A DNA stretch of 64,000 bases from NCBI GenBank assembly GCA_965601925.1, contig OZ271854.1, positions 3,968,001 through 4,032,000 on the forward strand, read 5' to 3'. The position numbers and the translations under genes were made by a program. A model generated the notes under the pieces. That model saw nothing but the letters and a program-made list of their open reading frames with translations, searched no databases and was not told the origin of the DNA. Positions 24,168 through 31,258 of the stretch are shown here, one piece after another. Each line of letters starts with the position of its first letter. The first letter of the stretch is position 1. This DNA comes from Alkalispirochaeta sp. (GTDB lineage Bacteria > Spirochaetota > Spirochaetia > DSM-27196 > Alkalispirochaetaceae).

Positions 24168-24934
24168 TGCTGCGAGTTGCGGGTCTCCGTAAGGCGTTCG
24201 GCGGACTGGTCGCCGTGAACGATATCGACCTATCGGTCGAGCGCGGTGCGATCCACGCCGTTATCGGACCCAACGGCGCGGGAAAGACGACCTTCTTTGA
24301 TGCATTGACCGCTCTCATCCCTCCCGACGCCGGAGAGATCACCTTCGACGGCCGGCGCATCGACGGGCTCAAGACGCACCACATCGCATTACGGGGAATC
24401 GGAAGAACGTTCCAGAACATTCGTCTCTTTCCGTATCTCTCGGTGTTGGAAAATGTCAAAGTCGGTGCGCATATCCTCGCCCGTCATACCCTCTTCGATG
24501 CGGTCATCCGGAGCCGACGATTTCTCCGTGAAGAGCGCGAGATCGACGAGTTTGCCATGGCGCTCCTTGATCGCGTCGGGCTTGCCGACAAGCGCGACGC
24601 GTATGCACGCAATCTCCCGTACGGAGAGCAGCGCAAACTGGAAATCTCACGCGCTCTGGCCGGCCGGCCGAAGCTCCTGCTCCTTGACGAGCCCGCGGCG
24701 GGAATGAACAACGCCGAGACGGCCGCCCTGGACGAGTTTATCCGCTCACTCAAAGCCGAGGGGTATACTATTCTCTTGATCGAACACGATATGAAACTCG
24801 TCATGAGTATCGCCGATCGTATTACCGTCATCGACCACGGCGAGAAGATCAGCGAAGGCGCCGCCCGGGAAGTTCAGACCGACGAACGGGTGATTGAGGC
24901 GTATCTGGGACGACATACGGGAGCATCGATATGA
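24167..24934 (+). CDS. livG: ABC ATP-binding protein (LivG type)
   Basis: FGGLVAV, GPNGAGKT, RTFQNIRLF, LPYGEQR, LDEPAAG. Confidence 0.9.
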   Translation: MLRVAGLRKAFGGLVAVNDIDLSVERGAIHAVIGPNGAGKTTFFDALTALIPPDAGEITFDGRRIDGLKTHHIALRGIGRTFQNIRLFPYLSVLENVKVGAHILARHTLFDAVIRSRRFLREEREIDEFAMALLDRVGLADKRDAYARNLPYGEQRKLEISRALAGRPKLLLLDEPAAGMNNAETAALDEFIRSLKAEGYTILLIEHDMKLVMSIADRITVIDHGEKISEGAAREVQTDERVIEAYLGRHTGASI

Positions 24935-25644
24935 GTCTCCTCGAGGTACACGAACTGAGTGTCTTCTACGGTCGGATTCACGCGTTGCGCGGCGTGTCGT
25001 TCACCCTTGAGGAGGGAGAACTCGTTGCGCTGATCGGTGCGAACGGTGCCGGAAAGACGACGCTGTTGAACACCATCTCCGGGGTCGTACCCGGGACCGA
25101 CGGAAGTGTCCTCATCGGCGGCCGGGAGATCCTCAACGAGCACTCCCACATCATTACACGCCTCGGCGTAGCCCACGCTCCCGAGGGGCGACACATCTTT
25201 TCCGAGCTCACCGTAGAGGAGAATCTCACTATCGGTGCCTACATTCTTCGGGATCGACGGCGCATTCCCGAGCTCATCGCGCGTAATTATGAACTCTTTC
25301 CCCGCCTCGCGGAGCGCCGGCGCCAGGAGGGCGGGTCGCTTTCCGGCGGGGAACAACAGATGCTCGCGATCGCCCGCGGACTGATGAGCGATCCGACGGT
25401 GCTGTTGCTCGACGAGCCGAGCTTGGGACTCGCGCCGATCCTCGTGGAGCGTATCTTCGAGATGATCACCGAAATCAATGCGGCCGGAGTCTCGGTACTC
25501 TTGGTGGAGCAGAACGCCAACGTGGCGCTGCAAGTCGCCACGCGCGGCTACGTTCTGGAGACGGGAGCCGTCACGATGCAGGACGACGCGCCGGCGCTTT
25601 TGCGCAATCCCGAGGTGCGCAAAGCGTACTTGGGTATCGCATAA
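24931..25644 (+). CDS. livF: ABC ATP-binding protein (LivF type)
   Basis: GANGAGKT, PEGR, LSGGEQQM, LDEPSLGL, VEQN. Confidence 0.9.
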   Translation: MSLLEVHELSVFYGRIHALRGVSFTLEEGELVALIGANGAGKTTLLNTISGVVPGTDGSVLIGGREILNEHSHIITRLGVAHAPEGRHIFSELTVEENLTIGAYILRDRRRIPELIARNYELFPRLAERRRQEGGSLSGGEQQMLAIARGLMSDPTVLLLDEPSLGLAPILVERIFEMITEINAAGVSVLLVEQNANVALQVATRGYVLETGAVTMQDDAPALLRNPEVRKAYLGIA

Positions 25645-25680
25645 GGAACGCTGCGGGCATACCGTAACAAGGAGGGATCG

Positions 25681-26616
25681 ATGAACAAGATTGAACGGGT
25701 TGAAGCGAGTCTTGCAGGGCGGGAGTTCGACCGTCCGCCGGTATCGTTTTGGTACCACTTCGGAACGCAGCACGAGGGCGGCGAACGTATCGCGGAGCTG
25801 GAACTCGAGTTTTTTCGCTACTACGATTTGGACTACCTCAAGTTGATGAACGATTACTACTATCCGATGCCCGAGGGGACGATCGGTCTGAAGACGAAGG
25901 ACGATCTGCGTCTCATAAAACCCTTCGACGTATGGAAGAGTCCGTGGAAGGAGCAGTTGAAGGCGATAGAAATCGTGGCGCGCGAGCTCGAGGGCGAGGC
26001 GTACTTCATCGACACGGTCTTTGATCCGTGGCAGGTATTGGTACGCAATCTGGTCGGCGAACACTTGATGCCGTTGATCGAGGCGGTACCCGAGGCGGTG
26101 TTGGAGGCGCTCGACGTGGTAACGGAGAACGTGATCGCCTACTGTAAAGCGGCCATTACCGCCGGGTCCGCCGGCGTCTTTCTCTCAACCTTCAGCGCCG
26201 GCACCCAATTAGCAAAAGATACGTACATGACCTTCGCGTACCCGTTTGTCGAACGAATCTTCAAAGCGATAGCGCCTATGGGCATCATGAATACGGCGCA
26301 TCTTCACGATTATGGGATTTTCGTCGACGAGATGGTGCAACTACCGGCCGACATCATCTCCTACGAGGACACCGATGCGTGTAACCCGTCGATTACCGAG
26401 ATGCGCGCCGTGTGGGACGGGAGCATCATGGCCGGTATGGATAAAAATCTCATCACCCGCGTTACACCCGAACGAGCGCGGCAGAATGCCCTCGACGGTA
26501 TCAAAAACGGCGGGTCGACGAAGTTCTTCCTCGCTCCGGGATGCAGCTTTCCGACGTGGTTTTCGCCGCAGGCCGGGAGACTCATCGTCGATGCGGTGAA
26601 GGCGTCGGCTCGGTAA
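25681..26616 (+). CDS. Uroporphyrinogen decarboxylase (URO-D)-family protein
   Basis: MNKIERV...DRPPVSFW.HF, LAPGCS; lacks the HemE RQAGR motif. Confidence 0.8.
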   Translation: MNKIERVEASLAGREFDRPPVSFWYHFGTQHEGGERIAELELEFFRYYDLDYLKLMNDYYYPMPEGTIGLKTKDDLRLIKPFDVWKSPWKEQLKAIEIVARELEGEAYFIDTVFDPWQVLVRNLVGEHLMPLIEAVPEAVLEALDVVTENVIAYCKAAITAGSAGVFLSTFSAGTQLAKDTYMTFAYPFVERIFKAIAPMGIMNTAHLHDYGIFVDEMVQLPADIISYEDTDACNPSITEMRAVWDGSIMAGMDKNLITRVTPERARQNALDGIKNGGSTKFFLAPGCSFPTWFSPQAGRLIVDAVKASAR

Positions 26617-26680
26617 GGTGTATCGGCCCCGGAACGAAAGCGTATTGTAGCGGACGCGGGCAGCGGTCCCGGAGGCATCG

Positions 26681-27220
26681 ATGAACTTGTACCTATGCGG
26701 AATGATCGGGTCCGGCAAGACGACGCTCGGTCGGGAGCTGAGCGGACGATTCGACAGCCCCTTTCTGGACCTCGATGGAGAGATGGATCGCCGCCTCGGA
26801 TACTCGTTTCACCGTTTGGTGCGCGAACGGGGCTGGCTTCCCTTCCGCGAGTTGGAGTACTCAATCTGTAAGGCCTTTTCAGAGGTGCGCGGCGCCGTCG
26901 TCTGTCTCGGAGGCGGTACCGTGCGTTACGAATGGAATCGCGATGTCCTCTCCGGGACGGGCGTTATGGTATTGCTGGAGGCCGGCGAGGATACGCTTAT
27001 CGAGCGCGTACGCGCCGCCGATCGACCGCGGGTTAATCCGGGGACCGATATAGCCGGCGATATTCGCCGCATGTGGGCGGAACATCGCGAAACGTACCGC
27101 GCCGCCGCGGATGTAATCTACCGCACCGACGAGAAGAGTATTCGCGAAGAGGTGCGTGAGTTGGAGATGCTTATTCGTGACGATCGGCGTTTTGCATCCT
27201 TGTGGGGACACCTCGTATGA
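26681..27220 (+). CDS. Shikimate kinase-like protein
   Basis: GMIGSGKTT, DLD, FRELE, LGGG, RP. Confidence 0.85.
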   Translation: MNLYLCGMIGSGKTTLGRELSGRFDSPFLDLDGEMDRRLGYSFHRLVRERGWLPFRELEYSICKAFSEVRGAVVCLGGGTVRYEWNRDVLSGTGVMVLLEAGEDTLIERVRAADRPRVNPGTDIAGDIRRMWAEHRETYRAAADVIYRTDEKSIREEVRELEMLIRDDRRFASLWGHLV

Positions 27221-27256
27221 GTAATGGAGTAAGACGCACCTCGGTGCACCGCACCA

Positions 27257-27333
27257 AGGAACCAAAAGGGTTCTCAGCGTCTGATAAGAACGAAATCGGT
27301 TCCCGTTAATACATAGGAACAAAAATGGTTCCT
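27257..27333. repeat. Three palindromic RGAAC-N7-GTTCY units at a 29-bp period
   Basis: GAAC starts at 27259, 27288 and 27317. Confidence 0.85.
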
Positions 27334-27334
27334 G

Positions 27335-27363
27335 TTGAGCGATGACGTATCGCGTGATACGGT
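27335..27363 (+). promoter_or_regulatory. Putative sigma70 promoter giving a leaderless satD transcript
   Basis: TTGAGC-N17-TACGGT with an extended TG; GTG start 7 nt downstream; no SD. Confidence 0.45.
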
Positions 27364-27369
27364 ATAGTA

Positions 27370-28020
27370 GTGAATGTAGTGGCGGTTATCGCAGACATCG
27401 TAAGTTCTCGCGATATCGTAGACAGAAGAGAATTCCAAAAGACGCTCAAATCGCACCTTCACGCGGTCAGCGAACGCGCCGGTGCATCGCTTCTCTCTCC
27501 GTACACCCTTACACTGGGAGACGAGTTCCAAGCAGTATACGGAGACTTCGATACGATATTCATCGATATCGTCACGATCATCGCAGCCCTATTCCCCGTA
27601 CGGTTGCGATTCGCCCTCGCTATCGGACCGCTCTCCACCGAGATCAACCGCGACGCGGCGCTCGAGATGGACGGACCGGCGTTTCATGATGCGCGCGCGT
27701 TGATGGAGGCCCTCAAACCGCAGGACCAGACGGTCATACGCATCGCGGCGGCCGATGTCACGCCCATCGATCTCATCAACGGATGTCTTAGGCTCCTATC
27801 GAATGCACTGGGAGCGTGGCGCGAGAACACCATTCGGCTGTTTCACGGGCTATTGACGGACGAATCGGTCGATACGTTGACACGGCGTGTGGGAATTTCC
27901 CGCCGCGGAGTCAACAAACACATCGCTTCGCACCACCTCCACGATTATGTAGACATAGTGCGGACGATACGGACCGAGTTGGAGCGGTACAACGTAGTGG
28001 GCATCGGGCGGACGGGATGA
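27370..28020 (+). CDS. SatD-family protein (nucleotide-cyclase-like domain plus C-terminal HTH)
   Basis: IADIVSSR, TLGDEFQ, DGPAFH.AR; C-terminal RRVGISRRGVNKH. Confidence 0.85.
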   Translation: MNVVAVIADIVSSRDIVDRREFQKTLKSHLHAVSERAGASLLSPYTLTLGDEFQAVYGDFDTIFIDIVTIIAALFPVRLRFALAIGPLSTEINRDAALEMDGPAFHDARALMEALKPQDQTVIRIAAADVTPIDLINGCLRLLSNALGAWRENTIRLFHGLLTDESVDTLTRRVGISRRGVNKHIASHHLHDYVDIVRTIRTELERYNVVGIGRTG

Positions 28021-28766
28021 CGACCACCCACGTTTTCTACGCCCTCATACCGGCGATATTCCTATCGCAATACGTTCGTAGCCTCGACGGACGACGAATG
28101 GTCCGTCGCACGGTAGGCGCCGCGCTGTGTTACATGGCCGCGATCGCGGCGCCGCTGGCAACTCCCGCCAACTGGGTGGCCGTAACCGTAATGGCAGCCG
28201 CGATTATCGGCATCGATATAACGATGTTGCGCAGATCGACCAATCGCCACCTTTCCCGAACCGTGGTGCTGCTTTTCAATATCGCCGCAACGGTCGGCAT
28301 TGTCGGCAACGGCAGATGGATATCGGGATTCAACGCGAGCACGCAGCGTATTGCCGACGCGTTGGCACGATGGAACGTCATACTCCACCGTCTCGACGGC
28401 GCGGCCGTCCACTACCTGATCGTCGCGGTGGCGGGCCTTCTTATCGCCACGACCGAGATCAACCATCCCATCGCGCTCATTCTCAAACGATCGAGCCTTA
28501 TTCCGCGTACGCTTCCCGGCGCACAAACCGGCGTCGACGACACTCCGGCTCGGGGGCGCATGATCGGCGTGTCGGAACGGGGAATCGTTTTCGTATTTAC
28601 CCTCACCGGCAACCTATCGGCCATCGGCCTCGTTCTCGCCGCCAAAGCGTTTGCTCGCTTTCGACAACTGGACGATCGCGAATTTGCCGAATACATGTTG
28701 ATCGGGACGCTACTGTCCATCTCCGGCGCGATGGCGGTCGGGCTGATCATGCAATTCTTCGTGTAG
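28017..28766 (+). CDS. DUF3307-like multi-pass membrane protein
   Basis: ATGA overlap with satD; C-terminal GRMIG..ER...AIG.VLAAK..ARF...EY.LIGTLLS. Confidence 0.75.
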   Translation: MTTTHVFYALIPAIFLSQYVRSLDGRRMVRRTVGAALCYMAAIAAPLATPANWVAVTVMAAAIIGIDITMLRRSTNRHLSRTVVLLFNIAATVGIVGNGRWISGFNASTQRIADALARWNVILHRLDGAAVHYLIVAVAGLLIATTEINHPIALILKRSSLIPRTLPGAQTGVDDTPARGRMIGVSERGIVFVFTLTGNLSAIGLVLAAKAFARFRQLDDREFAEYMLIGTLLSISGAMAVGLIMQFFV

Positions 28767-28838
28767 CACCGCGCACATACAGTCTTATCGCCCGCGCAAG
28801 TGGGTGAAGAAACGACCGGATATTTTCATCGTAAAGGT

Positions 28839-28894
28839 TTGACACATTCGGTATGATGCGGTATATTATTTTTCAGTTGCACATGTATGCAACT
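28839..28894 (+). promoter_or_regulatory. Sigma70 promoter with downstream palindromic operator
   Basis: TTGACA-N17-TATATT, then AGTTGCA-N6-TGCAACT at 28875-28894. Confidence 0.75.
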
Positions 28895-28925
28895 ACACAA
28901 CAAAGCATCCTGGGAGGAGGCGAGT

Positions 28926-29210
28926 ATGTTTGACTATGAGCACTTTCTGAAGATCGACTACACGGATATTCACACACGTACCAACCTAAGTTCGAGGAGG
29001 CCCACTATGCACGACTACGAACACCTGGCCATGCATCGCGAACGCGTACGGGATCGAGCACGTTCAATACGGCGCAGTTCGGTCATACGTCCGTCTCTCG
29101 GTGCGGCGCGCCGTCTCATAGCATACATGGCGAGCGTGGCGCGGCGGATCGCGGAACATCTGAAAGTTGGACACAGCGGTTGCGTAGATCACGCCGTTCC
29201 GTGTAAATAG
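28926..29210 (+). CDS. Small hypothetical protein with two in-frame SD/ATG starts
   Basis: GAGGAGG before ATG 28926 and before ATG 29007. Confidence 0.55.
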   Translation: MFDYEHFLKIDYTDIHTRTNLSSRRPTMHDYEHLAMHRERVRDRARSIRRSSVIRPSLGAARRLIAYMASVARRIAEHLKVGHSGCVDHAVPCK

Positions 29211-29219
29211 ATACACGGG

Positions 29220-30284
29220 ATGCCGCTCTACACTCCAGGACCGTCGGATCACCTTTATCGGCTCACACGATTCGAAGAATCTGCGGTCTTGGAGATGCTT
29301 GAGAGCCTACTATCTCTCTTGGATCCCGTACGGAATGCCGACTGGAAACAGACCGTACGCGGCGAGTTGGGACAAAGATTTCTCGACCGCCTTGCGGATT
29401 TGTATCCGCACTTTCACGGCGGCGCCGATTTCATCGAGTTTGCCGTTGCCGGCGACGAGCAGCAGGACATCCCCTCCTTTTTTGATGCCGTAGAGGCGCA
29501 GTCGCCGCGCCGTTTTCTTTTTCTGGTTCTCGGACGTATGTATCCCGAGGAATCCCTTCCGGAGACGATATCGCGGGAGACGGTCGAGCGTTTTTTGGAA
29601 GAGCGAAAGACTCGCAACCATCATCAACACATAGGAGCCGACTTTGCGTGGTGCGACGACCTTCCGGGGCTGCAAAAGCGCGTCGTGGCCCTCTGGAGAG
29701 AGTACTATGAGGGCGTCTTTCGAGATCACATCGACGACGGAGCCGCGGAACGCACGGAGGCGATCACCGAAAAAAAGACTCTTTTGGAGAACGAGGGCGG
29801 CGTCGCGGTGCTGAAGGAGATTACCGGTATGGCGGAACTGCCGTCGGAGATGCCCGCCGGTTTCCCGTATACCAGCCTCGTATTCGTCCCGGTCCTCAGA
29901 ATCAATCGCGGCCATAAGATGTACTTCGGGTACGGAAAGGTCGTCGTTCTCTTCGACGCCCACCGTACACGGCGCCAGATAACCGCCCAACGGGAGCGAC
30001 GCGACCGATTGACCAGAGTCATGCGCGCCCTCGCCGATCCCGGCCGCCTGCGGATGCTCCAAGTAATTGCCGGCGACGACTACAAGTTCAACGGTCAGCG
30101 AGTCGCCAATTGGACCAACCTCTCAACCTCGGTGGTGAGTCGCCATCTCAAACAGCTGCGCGAGGCCGGACTCATCGAAGAGCACTCGCCGGACAATCGC
30201 AACGTCCTCTATCGGGTCAATACCGAAGCGATCGAAGAACTCTCAAACGAGTTATTGCGCTACGTAAAAGACCTTCAATTATAG
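29220..30284 (+). CDS. ArsR-family regulator with a large N-terminal domain
   Basis: C-terminal ALADPGRLRML...VSRHLKQLREAGLI. Confidence 0.85.
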   Translation: MPLYTPGPSDHLYRLTRFEESAVLEMLESLLSLLDPVRNADWKQTVRGELGQRFLDRLADLYPHFHGGADFIEFAVAGDEQQDIPSFFDAVEAQSPRRFLFLVLGRMYPEESLPETISRETVERFLEERKTRNHHQHIGADFAWCDDLPGLQKRVVALWREYYEGVFRDHIDDGAAERTEAITEKKTLLENEGGVAVLKEITGMAELPSEMPAGFPYTSLVFVPVLRINRGHKMYFGYGKVVVLFDAHRTRRQITAQRERRDRLTRVMRALADPGRLRMLQVIAGDDYKFNGQRVANWTNLSTSVVSRHLKQLREAGLIEEHSPDNRNVLYRVNTEAIEELSNELLRYVKDLQL

Positions 30285-30325
30285 CGAACGCGATCCACGC
30301 GTTTTCGGCGGTCGTCCGCCCCACC

Positions 30326-31258
30326 CTATGAGTATCGGTCTCGTCCGACGATCTTCGCCGCGGTACCCAGGAGACGACCTTCGATTAATAGAAGACCGAT
30401 TGCAATACACGCCATACCGACCCAATGCCGGACGAGCAGCCGTTCCCGCAACACGAATACGCCCAACAGCGTCGCGCTTACCGGCACCAAGAGGGTCACC
30501 AACAGCACGTTTGTAGCGCCGGAGCGCGAGAGCACCCGAAAATACAACAGATACGCGACGGCGGTGCTCAAAAACGCCAGCGATAGGACCGCCGCGGTCG
30601 TACTCGGCGTTGTAGGAAACCTGATCAACGACGGGTCGACCGCGATCGTCACGGCGGCGACGATTACCGTGCTCGCCGTTAATTGTCCTCCGGCAACGGC
30701 GATAAGCGGGCATCCGGTCGCGCGAAATCGGCGGGCAAAGATACCTGCGATGCTATACGATATCGCGGCCCCTACTACCGCCAAGGAACCGAGAACGGCG
30801 GCTCGTCCTCCGGTAGCGCGTCCTACTCCGACGATGACGGCGACTCCCACCAAGCCGACGACACTCCCGAGTATTTTGCGCCCGTTCATCTTCTCGTCGG
30901 ATGTGAGGAAATGGGCCAGGAGAATCGTAAACATCGGCGTCGTCGCGTTGAGCACCGATGCGACGCTACTGTCTATGGAGCGTTGCGCCTGAAAAATCAG
31001 CGTGAACGGGATGACGTTGTTCACCGCGCCCATCACAAAGAAGGCGCCCCACATCCGCGGGTAGTGAAAGGGTGTACGCCGAAAGGGCAATGCCACCGCG
31101 TTGAGCGCGATTGCGGCGATACCGACGCGGAGCAACACGAGCGATACCGCCGGCATCTCCGCGATCGCTATCTTGCCGAAAAAGAAGGATCCGCCCCACA
31201 GAAACGAGAGCAGTCCGATCGATATCCAGCTTGATGTGTCCATGCGTAGATCGTTCAT
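30326..31258 (-). CDS. DMT/EamA transporter
   Basis: LWGGSF, LNATTP, about 10 TM; start uncertain. Confidence 0.88.
   Translation of the reverse strand: MNDLRMDTSSWISIGLLSFLWGGSFFFGKIAIAEMPAVSLVLLRVGIAAIALNAVALPFRRTPFHYPRMWGAFFVMGAVNNVIPFTLIFQAQRSIDSSVASVLNATTPMFTILLAHFLTSDEKMNGRKILGSVVGLVGVAVIVGVGRATGGRAAVLGSLAVVGAAISYSIAGIFARRFRATGCPLIAVAGGQLTASTVIVAAVTIAVDPSLIRFPTTPSTTAAVLSLAFLSTAVAYLLYFRVLSRSGATNVLLVTLLVPVSATLLGVFVLRERLLVRHWVGMACIAIGLLLIEGRLLGTAAKIVGRDRYS

Follow-up and report, generated by a model that had tools for sequence, protein, structure and literature searches.

We analysed a window of 64,000 nucleotides from the genome of Alkalispirochaeta sp. (contig OZ271854.1, positions 3,968,001 to 4,032,000 of the forward strand) and describe a two-gene unit at positions 27257–28766, in which a SatD-family protein with a nucleotide-cyclase-like fold is followed by a SatE-like membrane protein, both behind an array of three phased palindromes. 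From the window sequence and its list of open reading frames (ORFs), the unit comprises frames of 216 and 249 amino acids (aa) on the forward strand, at 27370..28020 (gene 1, satD, with a GTG start) and 28017..28766 (gene 2, the partner), joined by the ATGA overlap that an earlier note on this DNA had described. Our preferred reading, which we hold at a little below even confidence, is a two-level restraint module: SatD would repress the promoter shared by both genes and would in addition restrain the partner, either through a nucleotide or by contact. As to its parts, sequence comparison makes it likely that SatD uses the array to repress the operon to which it belongs, and it is likely that SatD restrains the partner and so keeps the cell from harm. 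The SatD family is named but uncharacterised, and in the literature searched, mostly without subscription journals, we found no paper that treats SatD as a cyclase-fold protein or as an antitoxin.

Gene 1 matches the SatD family (PF16264) with 91.1 bits against a curated Pfam cut-off of 29, and PF16264 is its sole Pfam match at E ≤ 0.1, the mCpol domain (PF18182) being among the families not matched. Among 1215 candidates, 657 proteins are relatives of SatD. The structural model is confident (predicted local distance difference test, pLDDT, 94.9), and its comparison with known structures matches the palm, approximately residues 1–149, about equally well to class III adenylyl/guanylyl cyclases, GGDEF domains and Cas10 palms. 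The top match, guanylate cyclase 3et6 (Z 11.9, root-mean-square deviation (rmsd) 2.4, 121 residues aligned), is tied with GGDEF rows, and the mCpol protein OptS (9mnr) stands at rank 48 (Z 9.6, rmsd 2.9, 107 aligned). Foldseek returned the adenylyl cyclase Rv1900c (E 5e-5) and, at rank 26, the Pycsar cyclase 7r65 (E 4.7e-4). These matches support the cyclase/GGDEF/Cas10-palm fold that had been proposed from the acidic motifs alone. Viral structures yielded generic GGDEF/cyclase proteins only, the SatD sequence had no match in the PDB, an NCBIfam scan gave nothing useful, and no fused SatD forms of 425–2000 aa occurred among 8000 candidates, which is weak evidence. Two genomes of one genus (loci L086 and L087) hold open frames of 1020 aa in which one stretch weakly resembles SatD and scores 19.9 bits, under the cut-off. 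The whole host genome (G000) contains 14 class III cyclase matches above the Pfam cut-off, so that the fold is already widely used by the host.

Both motifs, IADIVSS (D9) and TLGDEFQ (D51), are present as described earlier, together with the C-terminal helix-turn-helix (HTH), whose helices span residues 167–187 of the model and include R179 and N182. In a weak profile alignment (hhalign, E 0.06) against a profile made from 12 cyclases of the same genome, the two metal Asp of class III cyclases fall on D9 and D51. Six residues (D9, S13, G50, D51, Q54 and R80) are invariant in 120/120 rows of an alignment that was built from a word search and overstates invariance. Of ten divergent SatDs found in Opitutaceae, nine were read; both Asp are kept, with E52 and D101 variable. 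R80 is a conserved Arg in the strand that, by our reading, carries RIG in class III enzymes. The transition-state Asn/Arg pair was not aligned by hhalign: H106 occurs in 68/120 rows, and R109 is invariant but, as we read it, lies one place early. SatD likely has a metal–nucleotide site.

The three palindromes upstream of satD are each a predicted site for a SatD dimer. Operator 1 lies at 27257..27275 and has the core AACC-N5-GGTT, operator 2 lies at 27286..27304, 29 bp after the first, and operator 3 at 27315..27333, another 29 bp on; the third is the most symmetric (14/19) and ends 1 bp before the predicted −35. Written as GAAC-N7-GTTC, the copies begin at 27259, 27288 and 27317. The genome of 5,053,413 bp (5.05 Mb) contains 101 such sites, and since the three in the array are the only ones less than 100 bp apart, the array is more than chance; the fuller pattern RGAAC-N-AAA-NN-GGTTC occurs three times genome-wide, each time in the array. 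We surveyed 79 distinct homologous loci from six phyla with the motif AAC(C/T)-N5-(A/G)GTT, which was derived from these loci themselves and applied with up to two mismatches in each site, and found at least three sites phased at 27–30 bp before 59/79 homologues (60/80 including the window), compared to a background of 10/1600 shuffles and 16/3861 other windows. With the window included, 136/140 spacings within arrays are 28 or 29 bp.

The outer bases of the palindromes vary together with the HTH. For 70 loci with at least two sites, a set without L015, L017 and L079, no other of the 205 protein columns predicts operator base −1 as well as residue 179, R occurring with G in 34/34 and non-R with non-G in 35/36 cases, and residue 182 is the best predictor of base −2, N or H occurring with a purine in 18/19 and Y with a purine in 0/51 cases; each residue changes three times, which is too few for significance. 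In a tree built without the HTH, the R179/N182 type of the window and its purine-G-AAC half-site are found in one spirochaete clade and in a separate Opitutales clade. Because the array recurs and its outer bases track the HTH recognition helix, the three palindromes are very likely SatD's own operators on this comparative evidence, and the autoregulation that the earlier note had suggested gains support from the same two observations.

The predicted promoter (27335..27363, forward strand) consists of TTGAGC, a 17-bp spacer and a TG-extended TACGGT that ends 6 nt before the GTG. It is weak in consensus and was missed by a sigma-70 scan, whose only call is at 28839–28867. At homologous loci, TAnnnT ends 5–7 nt before the start in 29/75 cases (21 at exactly 6 nt), compared to at most 6 loci of 75 at any offset outside this range, and a Shine–Dalgarno (SD)-like sequence precedes the satD start in 2/75. 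Since the −10 hexamer sits 5–7 nt before the start and SD-like sequences are rare, the satD mRNA is predicted to be leaderless. A TTGA-like −35 lies between sites in 40/59 arrays. The third site abuts the predicted −35 in the window, so activation through the array may also occur here. In a soil clade known from metagenome contigs (L120, L125, L137, L143, L146 and, in part, L153–L175), SatD has a different HTH and the operators read GAC-N7-GTC, the last overlapping the start codon; the partner is shortened to ~180 aa, and the pair often directly follows a 214-aa gene that by eye resembles uracil phosphoribosyltransferase. A Halorientalis plasmid (L192:3971-5388) carries a haloarchaeal SatD–DUF3307 pair with repeated GCCGAAC/GTTCG half-sites upstream.

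The model of the partner (pLDDT 90.6) is all-helical, with about eight membrane helices and no strands; a hydropathy scan called five membrane helices. Of the description of gene 2 as a multi-transmembrane DUF3307-like protein, the membrane topology stands, and the likeness to DUF3307-bearing proteins is mainly a C-terminal homology of ~70 residues. DUF3307 (PF11750) itself gave no match in the partner at E ≤ 0.1 and matched 0/14 orthologues at E ≤ 1, and the N-terminal HxxxD(F/Y) and DQxxH motifs, found in 10 DUF3307 rows, are absent from 11 rows of the partner's clade. Alignments with DUF3307-bearing proteins run mainly through the last ~70 residues, outside the Pfam domain, and show 37–65% identity over 24–49% of the query with 13 invariant columns. 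The partner has a charged core (E147, N149, E187-R188, K210 and E225-Y226), and a set of SatD-linked residues (R81, R214-F215, L218 and F223-A224) lies on its predicted cytoplasmic face. By the positive-inside rule, loops 21–31, 72–82, 148–181 and 213–224 would be cytoplasmic; loop 97–127 likewise has four K/R. A profile search places 4,838 clusters in the partner family at E ≤ 1e-10 and 431 at E ≤ 1e-30. Compared with the PDB, the partner fold gave nothing above background (best Z 8.6 over 75 residues, best Foldseek E 0.35), the structural rows listed covering mostly residues 1–105, so that this result applies chiefly to the N-terminal part. Look-alikes in the ESM Atlas are clusters without a name, and a DUF3307 cluster at 0.76 is a lead only. 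At two loci (L029:6627-7148, 173 aa, and L051:6674-7003, 109 aa), in-frame short partners have their first helix linked to the conserved C-terminal module, and these may be minimal forms rather than ruins.

The two genes are co-conserved. A partner with the conserved C-terminal module directly follows satD at 73/78 evaluable loci, one of them a duplicate. In 401 Spirochaetota genomes, the same five hold both genes, adjacent to each other, with the partner broken in G048, and among 80 partner-anchored metagenome loci SatD is found in 68/69 with room upstream, the exception carrying remnants of both. Co-conservation, on which the earlier proposal had been made to depend in advance, was thus found at the genomic and the metagenome loci. 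With duplicates removed, the partner is broken or absent beside 9/74 SatDs and SatD is broken or absent beside 0/47 intact partners (p 0.012); in this count L079 (SatD broken) and L021 (partner frameshifted), both judged by eye, cancel, two collections are combined, assembly errors are possible, and the metagenome scan is biased by its required FAEY pattern, which a satD-less lineage has lost. In Saccharospirillum (L019, L030, L032, L036, L042 and L049), ~200 bp separate satD from the partner, which is missing within 6 kb in L036 and L042, and a nearby gene on the opposite strand is deaminase-like.

This satD-less lineage comes from the Opitutaceae, where, of 251 genomes, 35 were found to have SatD and 66 the partner (both in 31, SatD only in 4, partner only in 35). 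We checked 20 of the 35 partner-only genomes: ten have a divergent satD upstream, nine have neither satD nor array, and one is locus L239. The nine (L230–L238; genomes G447, G620, G499, G582, G533, G655, G560, G638 and G672) form one lineage with 78–95% identity, and eight of them adjoin an aminotransferase gene that also flanks an intact pair; in 5/5 tested genomes of the nine, no SatD scored above the cut-off. Their partners keep the buried charged core, and of 28 conserved partner positions, 21 are unchanged in at least 8/9. R81, E176, R214, L218, F223 and A224 are changed in 9/9 and F215 in 7/9, compared to partners beside satD, where R214 and F223 are each present in 72/73. On these alignments, one predicted cytoplasmic patch of the partner appears to matter only together with SatD. 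The partner is not a pure toxin, because nine genomes keep it intact without satD; we dropped a strict toxin, in which the partner is never found alone, on account of these nine one-lineage genomes, with their altered loop, and of L239. Ahead of the membrane gene, the satD-less lineage shares another upstream motif (GGCTGGAC ... TGTGATGA), possibly a new promoter.

Published genetics of streptococcal namesakes bears on the relation between the two genes. In Streptococcus pyogenes, satD is the single essential accessory gene, present in 178/249 genomes and essential in 9/9 data sets, and its only operon mate is non-essential in 9/9 (PMC11323703). The pair is named satD (essential) and satE (non-essential) in PMC4440532, whose data are among the nine sets and hence not independent. 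In S. agalactiae, satD has log fold changes (logFC) of −12.1, −9.7 and −9.8, and the overlapping downstream hypothetical gene, the last of the operon, has +0.36, +0.57 and +0.28 (PMC4881062); polarity cannot explain the satD effect, because the gene that overlaps it is the last and stands at +0.36. An essential satD with a dispensable partner in S. pyogenes and S. agalactiae is an antitoxin-like pattern, which is weaker in S. mutans, and this transposon sequencing (Tn-seq) of the namesakes supports the toxin–antitoxin (TA)-like relation that the earlier note had offered as one option. SatD and SatE have been labelled 'acid tolerance' since 2001. In the parts of PMC10326533, PMC10210942, PMC12005413 and PMC5786311 available to us, SatD is given only as an acid-tolerance or DNA-binding label, and the main texts of the essential-gene papers on S. 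canis and S. mutans do not mention satD.

We further surveyed the spread of the pair and its neighbours. PADLOC models matched the two proteins in 0 families at E ≤ 1e-12, no copy was present in 50,697 phage records, none of 64 pattern matches in viral contigs was confirmed, 4/72,556 plasmids have a match, and the genome contains no mCpol above the cut-off. One phage DUF3307 gene is listed in the available part of PMC8504454. From 356 neighbour clusters, 261 representatives were compared with PADLOC and 150 with Pfam; raw PADLOC matches amount to 21/261 versus 15/150 in controls, so that the enrichment in defence islands for which a neighbourhood survey had been proposed does not appear in these raw rates. 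No defence genes were found among the tested neighbours in the window. Restriction or TA genes lie near 6/24 Spirochaetota loci versus 0/15 control regions (one-sided p 0.04, two-sided 0.065), a count from which generic ATPase, glycosidase and similar matches were dropped by judgement and in which one control region was partly scanned. Neighbourhoods of housekeeping genes are stable in Opitutales, where more than 20 loci occupy one common site, and in Saccharospirillum. In the window's genus, the pair occurs in 3/17 genomes at different sites, and two relatives have other genes after the same shikimate kinase. Because of this patchy presence at different sites, the pair seems to move and to be lost often, without marking defence islands. 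A role in phage defence is unsupported. At L004 and L005, identical copies of the cassette region lie ~217 kb apart on one chromosome, near type II restriction genes, and represent a recent duplication or a mobile unit.

In the restraint module that we prefer, SatD would dimerise through its palm, and its HTH would bind the three phased palindromes, one dimer per palindrome, and repress the shared promoter. The cyclase-fold domain would bind or convert a nucleoside triphosphate, and SatD or its product would act on the conserved patch of the partner's predicted cytoplasmic face. Upon a change in nucleotide state or loss of SatD, the partner would be over-made and released. Ions would then leak past its buried charged residues, or these would upset the membrane in some other way, and growth would stop. 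We infer all of these elements, namely DNA binding, repression, nucleotide chemistry, post-translational coupling, partner activity and trigger. A more specific version, in which SatD is a constitutive cyclase of new specificity fused to a repressor and its product tunes SatD's own DNA binding and keeps a structurally new channel shut, strikes us as rather unlikely.

Several points weigh against restraint at two levels. Derepression alone would account just as well for the essentiality of satD. The gene is non-essential in S. mutans (ratios 0.41, 0.21 and 0.21, compared to 1.46, 1.31 and 1.66 for satE; PMC5806208). The streptococcal genes were equated with the window pair on their names, sizes and order rather than on sequence, and the streptococcal partners presumably carry the DUF3307 His/Asp motifs that are missing here. 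In SatD, Leu47 occupies the place of the base-selecting Lys/Glu, four residues before the second Asp, and the purine-selecting Lys is absent. Intact His-less partners persist without satD and array in 9/20 of the partner-only Opitutaceae genomes checked, and at L239 the partner is His-bearing, its RF loop is intact, and no satD was found within ~2 kb upstream. The satD-less lineage counts as a single event, and drift may account for the changes in it. The limits given above for the 120-row alignment, for the number of changes in the HTH–operator comparison and for the 0/47 count belong here as well.

A simpler explanation, which we regard as possible though doubtful, confines SatD to repression: a one-component nucleotide-sensing regulator would set the dose of a membrane protein that serves the cell, perhaps as an ion or proton carrier, with no post-translational link, and satD would look essential because derepression overdoses the membrane. 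Repression alone explains the array, the co-variation and the Tn-seq pattern, and it agrees with the milder effect in S. mutans, with the stable housekeeping neighbourhoods of Opitutales and Saccharospirillum, and with a membrane gene that stays intact, charged core included, in nine genomes after loss of satD and array. It leaves unexplained why partner residues on one face are near-fixed with satD and changed in 9/9 without it, an observation that the restraint module would accommodate through contact or a nucleotide signal at that patch. A still less probable reading takes the array for something other than a SatD operator, such as a LexA-type box of a host regulator or an RNA structure. 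Each copy can form a hairpin, and the region folds at z −2.0; yet there is no Rfam match, and transcription is predicted to start downstream of the array. GAAC-N7-GTTC, with its 101 sites, is no commoner in the genome than other spacings (57–181), and the array accompanies satD in different phyla, varies along with the HTH, as in the second clade with its GAC-N7-GTC sites, and disappears where satD does, which makes this reading the least credible of those considered.

Defence readings have to be measured against the same data. In Panoptes, a cyclase that is always active keeps a toxic membrane effector in check (PMC12657230), and by the same logic as in its mCpol–2TM-beta form a constant decoy cyclic nucleotide from SatD could hold the partner shut; once phage sponges or nucleases had taken the signal away, the cell would die. 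The palm common to SatD and OptS, the antitoxin-like essentiality of satD, the patchy spread (5/401 Spirochaetota genomes and, within the genus, different sites) and the restriction or TA genes near some Spirochaetota loci are all in line with such a guard. We nevertheless consider it distinctly unlikely, given the lack of defence genes among the tested window neighbours and of PADLOC enrichment, the absence of copies from phage records and confirmed viral contigs together with their rarity on plasmids, the fixed housekeeping site in Opitutales and the missing mCpol match in Pfam. Infection-activated defence of the type of the cyclic oligonucleotide-based antiphage signalling system (CBASS) or Pycsar, to which the layout of the pair had been likened, fares worse. 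There, infection would switch SatD on and its product would activate the membrane effector, as the synthase-plus-membrane layout and the fold match to 7r65 would allow. Loss of an activating synthase should be harmless, yet loss of satD is lethal or costly in streptococci, and with 0 PADLOC families, 0/50,697 phage records and no enrichment among neighbours we regard this reading as very improbable.

Compared to known systems, the window pair is closest in layout to streptococcal SatD/SatE (PF16264, with a partner usually of PF11750): the SatD family is the same, the overlapping downstream membrane gene is of similar size, and a C-terminal GxxIGxxER / AKxxxR / EYxxxGTL module is common to both. 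In contrast to the streptococcal pair, the partner in the window lacks the DUF3307 domain and the His/Asp motifs, and the window pair stands alone and not beside ffh. AbiE is an autoregulated toxin–antitoxin operon: the product of its first gene binds to inverted repeats in the operon's promoter and guards the cell against the product of the second. It has no sequence match to the SatD pair, in which the protector would have a nucleotide-enzyme fold and the restrained protein would sit in the membrane. With Panoptes (mCpol/OptS plus 2TM-beta or CARF-TM), the pair has in common a palm-fold enzyme gene next to a membrane gene and an apparent antitoxin-like dependence of the second gene on the first, the latter taken for the pair from Tn-seq of the namesakes. 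SatD is nearer to class III cyclases and GGDEF domains than to mCpol, it carries an HTH and an operator array, and its partner is all-helical without strands, not 2TM-beta, and without a PADLOC match. Class III cyclases (Rv1900c, Ma1120 and PycC 7r65) and GGDEF domains resemble SatD in the palm, the two metal Asp and the conserved Arg (R80); unlike the class III enzymes, SatD has no purine-selecting Lys, reads GPAFHxAR in place of GDxVNxASR in the helix and is fused to a DNA-binding domain.

The restraint reading would explain why, among the accessory genes of S. pyogenes, satD alone is essential, which is a puzzle in the published data (PMC11323703). If SatD is catalytic, a widespread nucleotide-restrained membrane system would join the few that are known. 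Were the constitutive-cyclase version true, the pair would represent a Panoptes-like inhibitory guard with a different enzyme and effector and with built-in transcriptional feedback, found in many phyla and in haloarchaea, and the essential accessory satD of human streptococci would be accounted for. Residues to mutate are suggested by the His-less clade and by the satD-less lineage, and the match between HTH and operator offers a ready specificity code.

In the window, a Pfam scan identifies the genes that flank the pair as coding for a URO-D-like protein, a shikimate kinase, an ArsR-type regulator, AhpC and AraC proteins. From 25500 to 30500, the window is identical to one public contig, which may be where this DNA comes from, and relatives belong to the Spirochaetales. 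The locus shows no clear shift in composition that would indicate foreign origin (GC content 0.54–0.61, genome 0.60). Three relatives (G401, G402 and G414) carry ~1.5 kb extra between the URO-D-like and shikimate kinase genes, which is absent from the window (24931–27220); in G414 this stretch contains a sugar-kinase-like ORF. Downstream of the pair, the stretch 28839–29210 holds a short ORF without a Pfam match that precedes the gene of the ArsR-type regulator and contains two in-frame SD-plus-ATG units of like start (MFDYEHF at 28926 and MHDYEHL at 29007). Ahead of it lies a near-consensus sigma-70 promoter, TTGACA-17-TATATT (28839–28867).

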